Shown here piece after piece: positions 4,735 to 11,368 of a stretch of 12,109 nt of DNA (the stretch's first letter is position 1; the number at the start of each line of letters is the position of its first letter). Below the pieces are notes generated by a model, which was given only the letters and a program-made list of their open reading frames with translations, was not told the origin of the DNA and made no database searches. A program made the position numbers and the translations under genes. The stretch is from a virus (taxonomy: Duplodnaviria > Heunggongvirae > Uroviricota > Caudoviricetes), in the IMG/VR virus record IMGVR_UViG_2531839476_000007, positions 1-12,109 of that record; one strand, written 5' to 3'.

Positions 4735-5002
4735 ATTACAGGTGCGCGTAGATGAGCTTGAAAAAGAGAACGCGAGCCTCAAAAAAATGCTGTCGCGGGC
4801 GGAAAGGGAATTATCAGGCAAATTATTGCCAGAAGAACTGCCACCAGCAGATATACCTGATCGAGTGTCCTGGTGGATGAAGTATTTCCGTGCACCGTGG
4901 GAGGCGTTTTGGTGCTACGACCATCGCAGATGGTGTGATGAACTTGATAGCAATTTTCCCTACTTTGCGGAAGGGAACACCTGCCCTCAATGCAGGGGAT
5001 AG
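4718..5002 (+). CDS. hypothetical protein, about 94 aa, coiled-coil N-terminus and C-terminal CPQCRG
   Basis: In frame with track ORF 4637..5002. ATG 4718 is preceded by GAGGTGG (4708-4714) and overlaps the end of the previous gene. Last gene of the left-hand + strand block. Confidence 0.5.
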   Translation: MPTKAELQVRVDELEKENASLKKMLSRAERELSGKLLPEELPPADIPDRVSWWMKYFRAPWEAFWCYDHRRWCDELDSNFPYFAEGNTCPQCRG

Positions 5003-5337
5003 CATTTGACGAAATCGATCACCCTATCCTGAACTTCAGAAAGAAGGTCTTTTTCACGCGCCAGGACGTCAGGATATTGACGTTCTGGCCTTACCAGATG
5101 CCGGAGCTTCCCATTAAGCAGAATGGCCTCAGAAAACACTTTTACGCTGTGCTTTATCCCCTCTGTTTCACTTTTCAGCGTCAAAATAAAGCGCAATTGC
5201 TTATTAGCCTGATTCGGATTCAATACACGAATTTGCAGTTCGTCTATGCTGTTCCGCAATGGGATTGATGCCACCACACTGGTGCAGTCTCTGATTGTCT
5301 GAATTGAACGGCTAACATTGAGAACGTTATTGTGCAT
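4987..5337 (-). CDS. doubtful antisense ORF, 116 aa, in the gap between the left gene block and hot
   Basis: Only long ORF covering the 367-bp gap 5003-5369, but there is no convincing RBS (AGGAG lies about 14 nt upstream of the ATG) and no recognisable family. A + strand ORF 4990..5268 competes for the same DNA. Confidence 0.2.
   Translation of the reverse strand: MHNNVLNVSRSIQTIRDCTSVVASIPLRNSIDELQIRVLNPNQANKQLRFILTLKSETEGIKHSVKVFSEAILLNGKLRHLVRPERQYPDVLAREKDLLSEVQDRVIDFVKCYPLH
5060..5089. repeat. 12-bp-stem inverted repeat (hairpin) centred on GACGTC
   Basis: gccaggacgtca (5060-5071) / ggatat loop / tgacgttctggc (5078-5089); 11 Watson-Crick pairs plus one G-T. Lies 58 nt after the stop at 5002. 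No adjacent U-tract on either strand. Confidence 0.5.
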
Positions 5338-5369
5338 GTGCCTGATCCACTAACTCCTGGAGGTTTCTT

Positions 5370-5621
5370 GTGTCAGATCGAAATATAGCAGCTAAAAGCC
5401 AGGAAGAGCGAGACAAGGTGAACGTAGACCTTGCCGCCAGCGGCGTTGCTTACAAAGAACGGCTGAATATACCTGTGATTGCAGAGCAGGTGGCCCGTGA
5501 GCAACCGGAAAACCTGCGCGCCTATTTCATGGAACGGCTACGGCACTACCGGCAGTTAAGCCTCCAGTTGCCAAAAGGGAGCGATCCGGTGTATCAGAAC
5601 GAGGATGCACCAAAAAAATAA
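5370..5621 (+). CDS. hot: Hot, homolog of the DNA polymerase III theta subunit (HolE), 83 aa
   Basis: GTG 5370 is preceded by GGAGG (5359-5363). The core [43 protein letters not shown] matches my recollection of E. coli theta ([43 protein letters not shown]). Position before humD fits the P1 gene order. Confidence 0.8.
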
Positions 5622-5680
5622 CGGCAAGATGGGGGAGAAATGTGATTAGCCCCCAGCGTGGCGCGCCTACAAACCCCGCT

Positions 5681-5726
5681 TTCACAAACTATGCCTTTTC
5701 AATGTATACTGTATGAATAAACAGTA
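5681..5726 (+). promoter_or_regulatory. SOS-type promoter with a LexA box overlapping the -10, upstream of humD
   Basis: -35 TTCACA (5681-5686), -10 TATACT (5705-5710), and TACTGTATGAATAAACAGTA (5707-5726), which fits the LexA consensus TACTG-N10-CAGTA. RBS GAGG 5732-5735 and ATG 5745 follow. Confidence 0.8.
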
Positions 5727-5744
5727 TCATTGAGGTAAAACGCT

Positions 5745-6134
5745 ATGGGCTTCCCTTCTCCTGCGGCGGATTATGTTGAAAGCCGAATTTCTCTTGATCA
5801 GCAGATAATTAGACATCCTTCAGCGACCTACTTCATGCGGGCAGCTGATAGCCATCACCGTGAGGGAATATTGCAGGGTGCTTTGCTGGTGGTTGATTCC
5901 TCGCTTACTCCGGTTGATGGTTCTCTGCTTGTGTGCGCTATGGAGGGTGAATATCGCATAAAGAGATACAGGAAGTATCCGCGCCAGCACCTGGAGGACT
6001 TAAGCACCGGGAAGAAAGAGGCGTTACCAGTAGATGACGATGGATACACGGGCAGTAATGCTGTTTTTGGTGTGATCACTCATGTCATCAATGATGCCCG
6101 AAGTGGGGAATTTGATGATTGTCCGGTTATTTAA
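5745..6134 (+). CDS. humD: HumD, a UmuD'-like S24-family protein lacking the UmuD N-terminal pro-segment, 129 aa
   Basis: Begins MGFPSPAADYVE…, aligning with UmuD residues just after its Cys24-Gly25 self-cleavage site (…CG/FPSPAADYVE). Ser in ADSH and Lys in YRIKRYRK align with the UmuD Ser/Lys dyad. An in-frame TAA at 5736-5738 rules out a longer N-terminus. Confidence 0.85.
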   Translation: MGFPSPAADYVESRISLDQQIIRHPSATYFMRAADSHHREGILQGALLVVDSSLTPVDGSLLVCAMEGEYRIKRYRKYPRQHLEDLSTGKKEALPVDDDGYTGSNAVFGVITHVINDARSGEFDDCPVI

Positions 6135-6169
6135 GCTGCAAAGTGCTGGTGCTTTATGCCTGTGAAGTT

Positions 6170-6198
6170 TATAATTGTGTACACATAACGAGTACACG
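6170..6198 (+). promoter_or_regulatory. phd-doc promoter -10 and two palindromic operator half-site pairs
   Basis: Perfect -10 TATAAT (6170-6175), then perfect 10-bp palindrome TGTGTACACA (6176-6185) and imperfect palindrome CGAGTACACG (6189-6198, 8/10), centres 13 bp apart. This is the arrangement expected for Phd autorepression. Confidence 0.6.
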
Positions 6199-6206
6199 AG
6201 GTGTTT

Positions 6207-6428
6207 ATGCAATCCATTAACTTCCGTACCGCGCGTGGCAACCTTTCTGAAGTGCTCAACAATGTTGAAGCCGGGGAAGAGGTTGAAATCACCCGCAGAG
6301 GCCGTGAGCCAGCAGTAATTGTCAGCAAGGCTACTTTCGAAGCCTACAAAAAAGCGGCGCTGGATGCTGAATTTGCATCCCTGTTTGACACCCTGGACTC
6401 CACCAACAAGGAACTGGTTAACCGATAA
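6207..6428 (+). CDS. phd: Phd antitoxin (prevent host death), 73 aa
   Basis: [73 protein letters not shown] matches my recollection of P1 Phd. Stop TAA overlaps the doc ATG (TAATG at 6426-6430). Confidence 0.92.
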
Positions 6429-6808
6429 TGAGACATATATCACCGGAAGAACTTGTTGCGCTTCATGATGCGAATATAAGCCGCTACGGCGGCCTGCCGG
6501 GAATGTCTGATCCGGGTAGGGCAGAGGCCATTATCGGGAGAGTTCAGGCCAGAGTTGCCTACGAAGAGATCACCGACCTTTTCGAAGTCTCCGCCACCTA
6601 CCTGGTGGCTACAGCGAGAGGGCATATATTCAATGATGCCAATAAGCGTACCGCGCTAAACAGTGCGCTGCTATTTCTACGCCGTAACGGGGTGCAGGTA
6701 TTTGATTCACCTGAACTGGCAGACCTTACCGTAGGCGCTGCGACTGGCGAGATATCTGTATCTTCTGTCGCCGACACGTTACGTAGATTGTATGGTTCTG
6801 CGGAGTAG
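6428..6808 (+). CDS. doc: Doc toxin (death on curing), Fic-fold kinase, 126 aa
   Basis: [39 protein letters not shown]… matches recalled P1 Doc and contains the Fic-type motif HIFNDANKR. Translationally coupled to phd. Confidence 0.92.
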
Positions 6809-6812
6809 ATTA

Positions 6813-6992
6813 ATGGCACGTAAATACAACAAGTTGTCCCGTGAAGCGTTAAAGATGCTTCTTGATGGCGTGAGCCGCCGCAAGGTAAAGCAATACCTGG
6901 TTGGTAAGCAAATTGGAGTCAGGACCGCTATTGCTGTGTTATGCCGTCAGGAAATGGTTGTGCTTAAACAGAGAATGCCGGGCAGCAGATAA
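6813..6992 (+). CDS. pdcA: PdcA-like small basic protein (post-doc), about 59 aa
   Basis: ATG 6813 preceded by GGAG (6802-6805); in frame with track ORF 6792..6992. Named from its position directly after doc in the P1 gene order, not from sequence recognition. Confidence 0.45.
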   Translation: MARKYNKLSREALKMLLDGVSRRKVKQYLVGKQIGVRTAIAVLCRQEMVVLKQRMPGSR

Positions 6993-7019
6993 AGCCCAAT
7001 CAGTGATTAAAGGTGTGAT

Positions 7020-8063
7020 GTGAAAGCCATAATTACTCCCTTTGTACAGAAAGAGCTTGGCCTCGCCACGTTCAAAGTGGATCAGGAGGTCAGAAAGCTG
7101 GTGGAGGCTGGCCGTAAATTTATTATGGAGCCGGTGCCGCGTGAGTTAATCGAGCACATGGAAGACGGCCTCGTTGTTACCGAGCAAACCATGGCAACAA
7201 ATGAGGCGTTGCAGCCGTTTTTTAACAGCGATGAACTGTTTCGCCGTATTGGTGGAATTGACTCGCTGGTGGCGTGGTTGCGTAGGAAAGAGGGTCAATG
7301 CCAGGCCGCAGATCGTAGTTGGTGTGACAACCATATTGTCCACGCTGAACGAGACAATAGCGCGGTGTTGTTGTGCTGGCATCACGATAACCATTACCGG
7401 ATGCGTGGTTTTAATGAGCTGAAAGAAACGCTGCACAATAATCGCGTTAACTGGATACTGGATGTCGCCCGTCAGGAAATGGGCCTTTCAAATAGCCATG
7501 ATTTAAGTATTCAGGAGCTGTGCTGGTGGGCTTTCATGCGCAACATGATGCACCTGATGCCGGAAGAAGTCTGCCGCATATCAATAAATAAGATGAAGGC
7601 TACTCCGCAGGATAGCGGACCTCTGAAAGAGGCGGATATTCGCCCGTATGACGATCGCGCTACAGCATATGTTCAGATGATGGAAGAACGCGCCGCGCCG
7701 ATGCGTGCAAAAGTATGCCCTGTGGATGTTGACTCCGACCCAGGTATGGCGCATTTCAAAATACCAAAACTTCAATCGCTAAAATTGCCCGAGTACATGG
7801 ACTTTGTGGCTTCCCGTCCATGCTGTGGCTGTGGAGCTGCGGGAGCTGGCGCTCACATTACGCCTTATATCGTTCGTCATAGTCGATTATGCGCGCATGA
7901 CATTTATGCTATTCCTCTGTGCCAGTCATGCCAGCGTGATATTGAGCGTGACCGCGATAATTGGGAGAAGACGCACGGTAGGCTGGCGATGCATCAACGA
8001 TTGTTCTTTGATTACGCGCTTGGAGTCGGCGCTATCACAAGTCATTCGTCGAGTGTTAGATAA
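7020..8063 (+). CDS. pdcB: PdcB-like protein, 347 aa, with Cys/His-rich HNH-like motifs
   Basis: GTG 7020 preceded by AGGTG. Contains CWHHDNH and a C-terminal cluster PCCGCG…[29 protein letters not shown] resembling the HNH pattern CxxC…H…N…LCxxC. Name is by position in the P1 order. Confidence 0.65.
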
Positions 8064-8064
8064 A

Positions 8065-8107
8065 ATTGCTCTAATGTATTGCTATTTCTTTAATCGAGGG
8101 TATTATA
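8065..8107 (+). promoter_or_regulatory. C1-repressor operator-like site overlapping the -35 of a putative lpa promoter
   Basis: ATTGCTCTAATGTATTG (8065-8081) matches the recalled asymmetric C1 operator consensus ATTGCTCTAATAAATTT at 14/17, first 11 positions exact. Candidate -35 TTGCTA (8079-8084) and -10 TATTAT (8101-8106) / ATTATA (8102-8107). Confidence 0.55.
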
Positions 8108-8115
8108 TTCGACGT

Positions 8116-8139
8116 TGATTAGTTGACATGGGCTAATCA
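8116..8139. repeat. 7-bp perfect inverted repeat TGATTAG-N10-CTAATCA in the lpa leader
   Basis: TGATTAG (8116-8122) and CTAATCA (8133-8139) flank a spacer containing TTGACA (8123-8128). Sits between the putative -10 and the lpa RBS AGGTGA (8142-8147). Confidence 0.5.
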
Positions 8140-8151
8140 GTAGGTGACAGG

Positions 8152-8604
8152 ATGTTACTTAACTGGCAGGGACGCCACTTCATGGAAATAAATCACTCAC
8201 GAATAACATCGTACGAGATTGCGGATTACATGATCCGCACTAAATCTCTTCTATCAGCGAAAGAACTCGCAGCAATTCTTGAAAAGGAATACCCGCATCT
8301 GGATGTCGATAAGCGCGATGTTTATCTGCGCTTAAAGGCTATCGCTGTGTCTAAGTATTCGTCTGTTTTGATTGATGACAGTACACGCCCACGTAGATTT
8401 CAGATCCACTCTCTGAATCCTGAATTCTTTCGCCGCAGCCGCGCTCCGCGCCGGTTTGATGAAAAACTCCAGAACGAACTCTATATGACGCAGGACGAAA
8501 AGGAACGCCGGGAGCACCAGCCTTGGGTGATGGCGCGTCAACTTTTCAATAAGGTGGTCCGTCAGCACCGTCATTACGGTAATGCCACATCCGCACGTAT
8601 CTGA
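8152..8604 (+). CDS. lpa: Lpa-like late promoter activator (P1 gene 10), 150 aa
   Basis: ORF-track ORF; ATG 8152 with RBS AGGTGA (alternative ATG 8182, MEINHSRI…). Assigned from its position immediately upstream of pacA and the C1-operator-like site upstream. I do not recall the Lpa sequence itself. Confidence 0.6.
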   Translation: MLLNWQGRHFMEINHSRITSYEIADYMIRTKSLLSAKELAAILEKEYPHLDVDKRDVYLRLKAIAVSKYSSVLIDDSTRPRRFQIHSLNPEFFRRSRAPRRFDEKLQNELYMTQDEKERREHQPWVMARQLFNKVVRQHRHYGNATSARI

Positions 8605-8614
8605 TTGATTGCTT

Positions 8615-8633
8615 GCCCGTTCCGGGCCTTTTG
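8615..8633 (+). terminator. weak intrinsic terminator-like hairpin between lpa and pacA
   Basis: GCCCG-TTC-CGGGC (8615-8627) followed by CTTTTG (8628-8633). Short 5-bp GC stem and only four U's, so at best a partial terminator. Confidence 0.3.
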
Positions 8634-8690
8634 ACATGTGACTTTCGTTACCCTCGCGTCAAAAAGAGTTTTATACGAAAGGAAGCATAA

Positions 8691-9884
8691 GTGACCTGGG
8701 ACGATCACAAGAAGAATTTTGCTCGCCTGGCGCGAGATGGTGGTTACACCATCGCACAGTATGCCGCCGAGTTTAATCTTAACCCTAATACCGCACGTCG
8801 TTATCTCCGTGCCTTCAAAGAAGACACCAGGACAGCGGACAGCCGCAAGCCAAATAAGCCAGTCAGGAAGCCTCTAAAAAGCATGATCATTGATCACGCT
8901 AATGATCAACGTGCATGTGATCACATTGTGGCTGAAATGGCTGAAAAACAAAGAGTTAATGCTGTTGTCAGTGCCGCAGTCGAGAACGCTAAGCGCCAAA
9001 ATAAGCGCATAAATGATCGTTCTGATGATCATGACGTGATCACCCGCGCCCACCGTACCTTACGTAATCGCCTGGAACGCGACACCCTGGATGATGATGG
9101 TGAACGCTTTGAATTCGAAGCTGGCGATTACCTGATAGATAACGTTGAAGCGCGGAAGGCCGCGCGCGCTATGTTGCGTCGGTCCGGGGCCGATGTTCTG
9201 GAAACCACTCTTCTGGAAAAGTCTCTTTCTCATCTCCTTATGCTGGAGAACGCCAGGGATACGTGTATTCGCCTGGTGCAGGAAATGCGCGATCAGCAAA
9301 AAGACGATGATGAAGGTACTCCGCCTGAATACCGTATCGCGAGCATGCTAAACAGCTGTTCCGCGCAGATAAGCAGCCTGATCAACACCATTTACAGCAT
9401 CCGGAATAACTATCGAAAAGAAAGCCGGGAGGCGGAAAAGCACGCTTTATCTATGGGGCAAGCTGGCATTGTTAAGCTGGCATACGAACGAAAGCGTGAA
9501 AATAACTGGTCAGTGCTGGAAGCGGCTGAATTCATCGAGGCGCATGGAGGAAAAGTGCCTCCCCTGATGCTGGAGCAAATCAAAGCCGATCTGCGTGCTC
9601 CTAAGACCAATACCGATGATGAGGAAAACCAAACAGCATCTGGCGCTCCATCACTTGAAGATCTGGATAAAATCGCGCGAGAACGGGCCGCCAGCCGCCG
9701 CGCTGATGCCGCATTGTGGATTGAGCATCGTAGAGAAGAAATTGCCGATATCGTCGATACAGGTGGTTATGGTGATGTCGATGCGGAAGGCATATCAAAC
9801 GAAGCATGGCTTGAACAGGATCTGGACGAAGACGAGGAGGAAGACGAAGAAGTTACCCGCAAACTGTACGGGGATGATGATTAA
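8691..9884 (+). CDS. pacA: PacA, small terminase / pac-site recognition subunit, 397 aa
   Basis: GTG 8691 with RBS AAGGAAG (8680-8686). Begins [28 protein letters not shown]… and contains the pac hexamer clusters within its 5' third, as described for P1 pacA. Stop overlaps the pacB ATG (TAATG at 9882-9886). Confidence 0.88.
8884..9042 (+). other. pac packaging site: 4 + 3 TGATC(A/G) hexamers, each carrying a GATC Dam site
   Basis: Left cluster TGATCA at 8884-8889, 8891-8896, 8903-8908, 8918-8923. Right cluster TGATCG 9014-9019 and TGATCA 9026-9031, 9037-9042. Span of about 160 bp inside pacA matches the recalled architecture of the P1 pac site. Confidence 0.8.
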
Positions 9885-11368
9885 TGGCCAGAAGTTGCGT
9901 AACGGACCCACGTTGGCGCGAGCTTGTGGCGCTATATCGTTATGACTGGATTGCGGCCGCTGATGTGTTGTTTGGGAAGACACCAACCTGGCAGCAGGAT
10001 GAGATCATTGAGTCCACGCAGCAGGACGGCAGTTGGACAAGTGTGACCTCCGGCCATGGTACTGGTAAATCGGATATGACGAGTATCATTGCAATACTCT
10101 TCATCATGTTTTTCCCCGGCGCTCGCGTCATTCTGGTCGCTAACAAAAGACAGCAAGTCCTTGATGGTATTTTCAAATACATAAAGAGCAATTGGGCTAC
10201 TGCTGTTAGCAGATTCCCGTGGTTGTCGAAGTATTTCATTCTTACAGAAACGTCTTTTTTTGAGGTGACTGGCAAGGGTGTTTGGACAATATTGATAAAG
10301 TCCTGTCGCCCCGGGAATGAGGAGGCGTTGGCTGGTGAACACGCCGATCATCTCTTGTATATCATCGACGAAGCGTCGGGTGTGAGTGATAAAGCATTCA
10401 GTGTGATAACAGGTGCGCTGACCGGTAAGGATAACCGTATTCTGCTTCTTTCCCAGCCTACGCGACCTTCAGGCTATTTCTACGATTCACACCACAGACT
10501 AGCTATTCGCCCGGGAAATCCTGATGGATTGTTTACTGCGATAATACTGAATAGTGAAGAATCTCCGCTTGTAGATGCAAAATTTATACGAGCAAAACTT
10601 GCGGAGTATGGCGGTCGTGATAACCCCATGTACATGATCAAAGTACGTGGTGAATTTCCCAAATCTCAAGATGGCTTTCTTCTTGGTCGTGATGAGGTTG
10701 AGCGGGCGACGCGGCGAAAGGTCAAGATTGCCAAAGGATGGGGCTGGGTTGCATGTGTTGACGTTGCTGGTGGCACAGGACGAGATAAGTCCGTTATTAA
10801 TATCATGATGGTGTCCGGCCAGCGAAATAAACGCCGTGTAATCAACTATCGTATGCTGGAATACACAGACGTTACAGAAACGCAGTTAGCCGCCAAGATT
10901 TTCGCAGAATGTAACCCAGAACGGTTCCCGAACATAACCATAGCTATTGATGGCGATGGCTTGGGGAAATCGACGGCTGATCTAATGTACGAACGCTATG
11001 GCATTACCGTCCAGCGTATCCGCTGGGGTAAAAAGATGCACAGCCGTGAAGATAAAAGCCTTTATTTCGATATGCGCGCTTTCGCGAATATTCAGGCGGC
11101 AGAAGCTGTAAAATCAGGGCGTATGAGGCTTGATAAGGGGGCTGCGACTATAGAGGAAGCATCAAAGATACCGGTAGGGATAAATTCCGCAGGTCAATGG
11201 AAGGTGATGTCAAAGGAAGATATGAAGAAAAAACTCAACCTGCACTCACCGGACCATTGGGATACATATTGTTTCGCTATGTTGGCGAACTATGTTCCCC
11301 AGGATGAAGTGCTTAGCGTCGAAGACGAAGCGCAGGTTGATGAAGCTCTGGCATGGCTTAATGAATAA
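9884..11368 (+). CDS. pacB: PacB, large terminase (ATPase/nuclease) subunit, 494 aa
   Basis: ATG 9884 coupled to the pacA stop. Walker A GHGTGKS and Walker-B-like [11 protein letters not shown] are present. Size and position match P1 pacB. Confidence 0.88.

Follow-up and report, generated by a model that had tools for sequence, protein, structure and literature searches.

Organization of the humD region

The stretch of DNA analysed here, 12,109 nucleotides in full and referred to below as the window, is a segment of a P1-like phage-plasmid of the RCS47/SJ46/P7 type and, taken as a whole, a mosaic of that family. The region from 5300 to 6900 is 98.7% identical to phage RCS47 and 95–98% identical to P1, P7, SJ46 and D6. 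The following genes and features bear on the analysis.

5370–5621, plus strand: hot, a DNA polymerase III theta homologue (Pfam DNA_pol3_theta, E = 2.8e-33; annotated as hot in RCS47)
5680–5686, plus strand: predicted –35 element of humD, TTCACA (5681–5686) in this sequence and TT(G/T)CAC (5680–5685) in the register of the family
5705–5710, plus strand: predicted –10 element TATACT, from a consensus scan, its last 4 nt lying inside the LexA box
5707–5726, no strand assigned: predicted LexA operator (SOS box) TACTGTATGAATAAACAGTA, the sole exact TACTG-N10-CAGTA of the window, assigned from its matrix score and its homology to P1 and P7
5732–5735, plus strand: Shine-Dalgarno sequence GAGG of humD, read from the sequence and kept in nearly all related loci
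5745–6134, plus strand: humD, 129 aa, pre-truncated UmuD΄-like (Pfam Peptidase_S24, PF00717, E = 6.8e-9)
6207–6428, plus strand: phd, forming an addiction module with doc (Pfam PhdYeFM_antitox)
6428–6808, plus strand: doc, forming an addiction module with phd (Pfam Fic/DOC)
Between doc and pdcB, plus strand: pdcA, from gene order
7020–8063, plus strand: pdcB, from gene order
8065–8081, before lpa: C1-operator-like site ATTGCTCTAATGTATTG, with 3 mismatches, corresponding to Olpa of P1
8152–8604, plus strand: lpa, from gene order
3΄ of lpa, plus strand: pacA and pacB, from gene order

The upstream neighbour of humD is hot, which is co-directional; 123 bp separate its stop codon from the humD ATG at 5745, and the LexA box ends 18 nt before the same ATG. 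The HumD protein is 98.5% identical to that of P1 and 42% identical to E. coli UmuD, with a BLASTP alignment that begins at Gly25 of UmuD. Gly25 is the first residue of processed UmuD΄, from which the 24 N-terminal residues of UmuD have been removed. No umuC partner lies next to humD; phd and doc follow, and humD-phd-doc-pdcA-pdcB-lpa-pacAB forms a co-directional array on the plus strand, uninterrupted as far as pacA.

Sequence and strength of the LexA box

The gammaproteobacterial SOS box is a 20-bp palindrome, TACTG(TA)5CAGTA, in which CTG-N10-CAG is invariant. A consensus scan of the whole 12,109-base window found one exact match to TACTG-N10-CAGTA, namely TACTGTATGAATAAACAGTA at 5707–5726, in which perfect arms enclose an A/T-rich spacer; the first-pass annotation had described the conserved ends as an exact fit, and this description was correct. 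Five further matches each carried two mismatches, and the six matches found in all, against 3.75 expected, are at chance level.

We also scored the window with a symmetric LexA weight matrix constructed from 24 E. coli LexA sites, of which the recA and umuDC entries are exact with respect to MG1655 DNA. The humD box scored 26.06 bits, and with the same matrix the reference scores were 27.1 bits for umuDC, 22.9 for sulA and 22.8 for recA (range of the 24 training sites, 12.5–27.1 bits). The maxima obtained from shuffled sequences (n = 200 shuffles) averaged 9.4 bits and peaked at 18.47 bits. A heterology-type index, an approximate measure re-derived from the same sites and not the published Lewis matrix, was 2.45 for the humD box, which places it in the strongest tier. 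The humD box is far beyond chance and ranks with the strongest real SOS boxes.

A weight-matrix scan for further LexA boxes had likewise been proposed at first pass. The second-best matrix score within the window was just 11.07 bits, inside the range of the shuffles, and neither the matrix nor the consensus scan of the whole window detected an additional LexA box beyond chance. A raw excess of CTG-N10-CAG (7 found, compared with 2.5 expected) was dismissed as being due to coding-sequence matches of at most 11 bits each.

Conservation in P1-like loci and distant phages

The P1-like set consisted of 80 IMG/VR loci together with P1 and P7; the 82 loci with enough upstream DNA were aligned and represented 31 unique sequences. 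CTG-N10-CAG before humD was kept in every P1-like locus, with the CTG and CAG triplets invariant in 82/82 loci and spacer positions 5714–5716 and 5719 varying freely. Invariant arms combined with a variable spacer are the pattern expected of a LexA operator. The –10 sequence TATACT was conserved in 81 of the 82 loci, the exception being P1 itself, which has TGTACT.

The DNA upstream of humD belongs to at least three unrelated module types, namely the P1/P7 type with a divergent lxr-like gene, the type of the window with hot, and a third. These three types align without gaps from the –35 element onward. Conserved across them are TT(G/T)CAC (5680–5685) and TT.AATGTATACTG (5698–5711), whereas positions 5686–5697 are variable; among the 31 unique sequences from the three module types, positions 5680, 5681, 5683 and 5685 were invariant and position 5684 was nearly so. 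The conservation of TT(G/T)CAC at a fixed distance across three modules is a slightly new observation. This footprint supports the view that the –35, –10 and box may form a self-contained promoter–operator cassette. As a separate observation, some P1-like contigs carry a deletion, seen in the IMG/VR locus L078 at the window equivalent of approximately 5440–5672, that joins the middle of hot (...GCTTACAAA) to ...CCCCGCTTTCACAAAC; the 3΄ part of hot is lost, and the –35, the –10 and the LexA box are intact.

We further examined 12 distant phage umuD/umuD΄-like genes, from N15, phiKO2, HK140, vB_Ecl_MII_003, BTP1, Huey, an Aeromonas phage, a Hafnia phage, CMS-2020a, PHB10, Oslo and ENT39118. A LexA box of 19–27 bits was present upstream in 12/12 of these homologues, in which protein identity fell to approximately 39%, and the box lay approximately 15–25 nt before the start codon in 10 of the 12. 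The exceptions were phiKO2, whose box ends approximately 44 nt before the annotated start, and HK140, whose box precedes a small upstream ORF.

Two details of these exceptions are recorded here in their own right. The phiKO2 record annotates a lexA site before the umuD-like gene, and the top-scoring box in this locus (L084), TACTGTATGCATATACAGTA at 437–456, lies just upstream of the annotated ‘lexA binding site’ (455–475). The annotated feature contains one good half-site only, and either the annotation may be offset or the sites may be tandem. In HK140 (L085), the box at 219–238 is flanked by a divergent dinI on one side and a small hypothetical ORF on the other; this ORF directly precedes the umuD΄-like gene, with a one-base overlap, which implies a two-gene SOS operon.

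Homologous sites and promoters in P1 and P7

The humD LexA site is already known, being annotated in the records of both P1 and P7. The P1 record (AF234172) contains a protein_bind feature at 87545–87564, the homologous 20-mer TACTGTATAAATGAACAGTA, described as ‘LexA binding site in the regulatory region of lxr and humD’, and the P7 record (AF503408) annotates the homologous site at 94404–94423 as ‘LexA; regulation of humD expression’. In addition, humD has been called a LexA-regulated SOS gene (PMC9603915). The proposal made at first pass, that humD is under host SOS control, agrees with these two annotations and with the published statement, and the sequence of the window is consistent with it.

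The promoter annotation of P1 is located elsewhere. PhumD of P1 is predicted approximately 480 bp upstream, inside lxr and not at the box. In P1, hot and humD are separated by lxr (‘LexA regulated function’), a minus-strand gene of 573 bp, and comparison with the P1 locus (1747–2499) showed that the corresponding interval of the window, 5622–5744, is without lxr. The lack of lxr means that the P1-type distal PhumD is also absent, and no match to the annotated PhumD of P1 was found anywhere in the window. This arrangement, lacking both lxr and PhumD, is a slightly new point. Among plasmids the variant is common, with 638 records that match 5622–5800; coverage reaches at least 80% of the query in 202 of them, and identity is 99% or higher in 162.

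The predicted humD promoter and alternative explanations

The TTCACA/TATACT pair, with a spacer of 18 nt, agrees with the promoter consensus at 10 of 12 positions and is the sole plus-strand promoter-like site in 5000–7200. Promoter-like sites numbered 2 in the region, compared with 2.5 expected, and such matches are individually no rarer than chance. The LexA box overlaps the predicted –10 by 4 nt, as had been claimed in the first-pass annotation, and the footprint of this overlap is conserved across relatives. The –35 named there was upheld in part: TTCACA is present at 5681–5686 with an 18-nt spacer, but it is specific to this variant, and the register of the family is TT(G/T)CAC at 5680–5685, which gives a spacer of 19 nt. 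Under either register, the non-consensus –35 and the spacer of 18–19 nt predict that humD has a rather weak sigma-70 promoter. An alternative –10 within the box (TATGAA here, TATAAA in P1) was rejected because it has no acceptable –35 at 16–18 nt upstream. Taken together, the sequence comparisons suggest that the box-proximal promoter is probably the real humD promoter across the family.

Our main reading is that the palindrome at 5707–5726 is a genuine and very strong operator for host LexA on the humD promoter, to which we assign a probability of about 0.88. The alternative that retains the most plausibility, although we consider it unlikely, accepts the LexA site as real but supposes that humD is transcribed mainly from upstream, from hot or from distal PhumD-like promoters, that TTCACA/TATACT arose by chance, and that LexA acts as a roadblock attenuating read-through. 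Such transcription would be in keeping with the position of the P1 PhumD annotation, with the co-directional orientation of hot, with a hot-humD spacer that has no terminator-like site or significant hairpin, and with the finding that promoter-like matches in the region are no commoner than chance. However, the P1 PhumD sequence and the entire lxr gene are missing from the window, and three divergent upstream modules have kept TT(G/T)CAC and the –10, always the same distance apart. Moreover, the box still directly precedes the gene in distant homologues whose upstream genes are unrelated (tail fibre, gtrA, dinI), which speaks for a self-contained promoter–operator cassette.

The operator function on the humD promoter proposed above can also be weighed against the idea that the box mainly regulates a divergent minus-strand gene, comparable to lxr in P1 or dinI in phiKO2, and that its proximity to humD is incidental. 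The P1 site is indeed annotated for both lxr and humD, and phiKO2 and HK140 have a divergent dinI beside their boxes; in the window, however, hot, the gene upstream, shares the strand of humD, the only minus-strand ORF there (5527–5685, 52 aa) is antisense to hot and without a promoter-like site, and the box has been kept although lxr is gone. We regard this explanation as highly improbable. Equally hard to credit is the idea that the palindrome matches by chance, or survives as a relic without function, and is not bound by LexA in vivo: it scores 26 bits, whereas the shuffles reached at most 18.5, its arms are invariant in 82/82 loci around a variable spacer, and a box is kept in 12/12 distant homologues.

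Independence from C1 and possible transcriptional read-through

The control of humD had been proposed at first pass to be separate from the phage repressor C1. We scanned the window with a 17-bp asymmetric ATTGCTCTAATAAATTT-like consensus, allowing at most 3 mismatches, and found no C1 operator near humD (5600–5760). The only C1-operator-like matches in the window were located at 8065–8081, before lpa, and at 10580–10596 (2 found, compared with 0.06 expected), so that even the nearest is far from humD, in accordance with the proposal. In the literature, humD has been treated as one of the P1 genes outside C1 control (PMC4713147).

With regard to the two matches themselves, the Olpa-like site overlaps a promoter-like TTGCTA-16-TATTAT just before lpa (8065–8106). 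The second, TTTGCTCGTATAAATTT at 10580–10596, is on the minus strand inside pacB and has 3 mismatches; the occurrence of two such matches is unusual.

Neither the hot-humD nor the humD-phd spacer contained a terminator-like site or a significant hairpin (z-scores of 0.41 and 0.17). A simple scan for intrinsic-terminator-like sites on the plus strand from humD to pacA (6134–8700) found none except for a weak one inside doc (6652–6667). With no terminator-like site after humD, read-through into phd-doc and beyond is permitted, and it is possible that transcription from the predicted humD promoter continues into phd-doc, which in P1 has a promoter of its own (annotated as Pphd). A stronger version, in which SOS-induced humD transcription would enter phd-doc, bypassing its autoregulation, and even lpa, the late-promoter activator, bypassing C1, appears doubtful to us. 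If it were true, the read-through would constitute a second, C1-independent SOS input into plasmid addiction or late gene expression of P1-like phage-plasmids.

Proposed regulation of humD

In the regulation that we propose, the assignment of the promoter, its occupancy by LexA and its induction by damage are what we infer for humD. As long as the lysogen is undamaged, a LexA dimer would occupy the box, cover the end of the –10 and the predicted start region and block RNA polymerase, keeping humD expression low. Upon DNA damage, RecA-stimulated self-cleavage of LexA would free the promoter, and humD would be transcribed. Made in the truncated UmuD΄ form, HumD would skip the RecA-dependent cleavage that normally delays the activation of UmuD. 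Because HumD would be made already activated, transcriptional repression by LexA may be the main remaining SOS checkpoint, as judged from the established umuDC pathway.

Phage-plasmids of the P1 family would in this manner link the SOS response of the host to a UmuD΄ mutagenesis factor that is ready-made, a relationship already present in the P1 and P7 annotations. For the variants without lxr, which occur in hundreds of E. coli and Salmonella plasmids, a P1-type distal PhumD is impossible, and the box-proximal promoter is the conserved candidate. Annotation pipelines could accordingly transfer the LexA site and the box-proximal promoter instead of the P1 PhumD feature.

Comparison with known systems

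The locus resembles those of P1 and P7 in that the box lies 18–19 nt before the humD ATG, the arms read TACTGTAT...AACAGTA, the box overlaps TATACT or TGTACT, and humD-phd-doc is arranged downstream. It differs from them in two spacer bases of the box (TATGAATAAA in the window, compared with TATAAATGAA in P1 and P7) and in the DNA to the left of approximately 5697, where the sequences diverge and P1 and P7 have a divergent gene (lxr, upf94.2), whereas the window has hot.

Among the more distant phages, N15 gp26, phiKO2 gp23, BTP1, HK140 and others have a single strong upstream box, as humD does, in the company of unrelated flanking genes. The records of N15 and phiKO2 show an annotated terminator downstream of the umuD΄-like gene, whereas nothing terminator-like lies between humD and phd in the window. 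PHB10, Oslo and ENT39118 have an adjacent umuC, unlike the humD locus.

The chromosomal system to which humD can be compared is E. coli umuDC. In that system, a UmuD-family gene is preceded by the near-consensus box TACTGTATATAAAAACAGTA, which overlaps the promoter; 19 nt separate the box from the start codon, compared with 18 nt in humD. The right half-site of the humD box, ATAAACAGTA, resembles that of umuDC, AAAAACAGTA, and recA has exactly the same left half-site, TACTGTATGA. Unlike E. coli umuDC, however, humD encodes the already-processed UmuD΄ form and is accompanied by no umuC partner, the next gene being phd.
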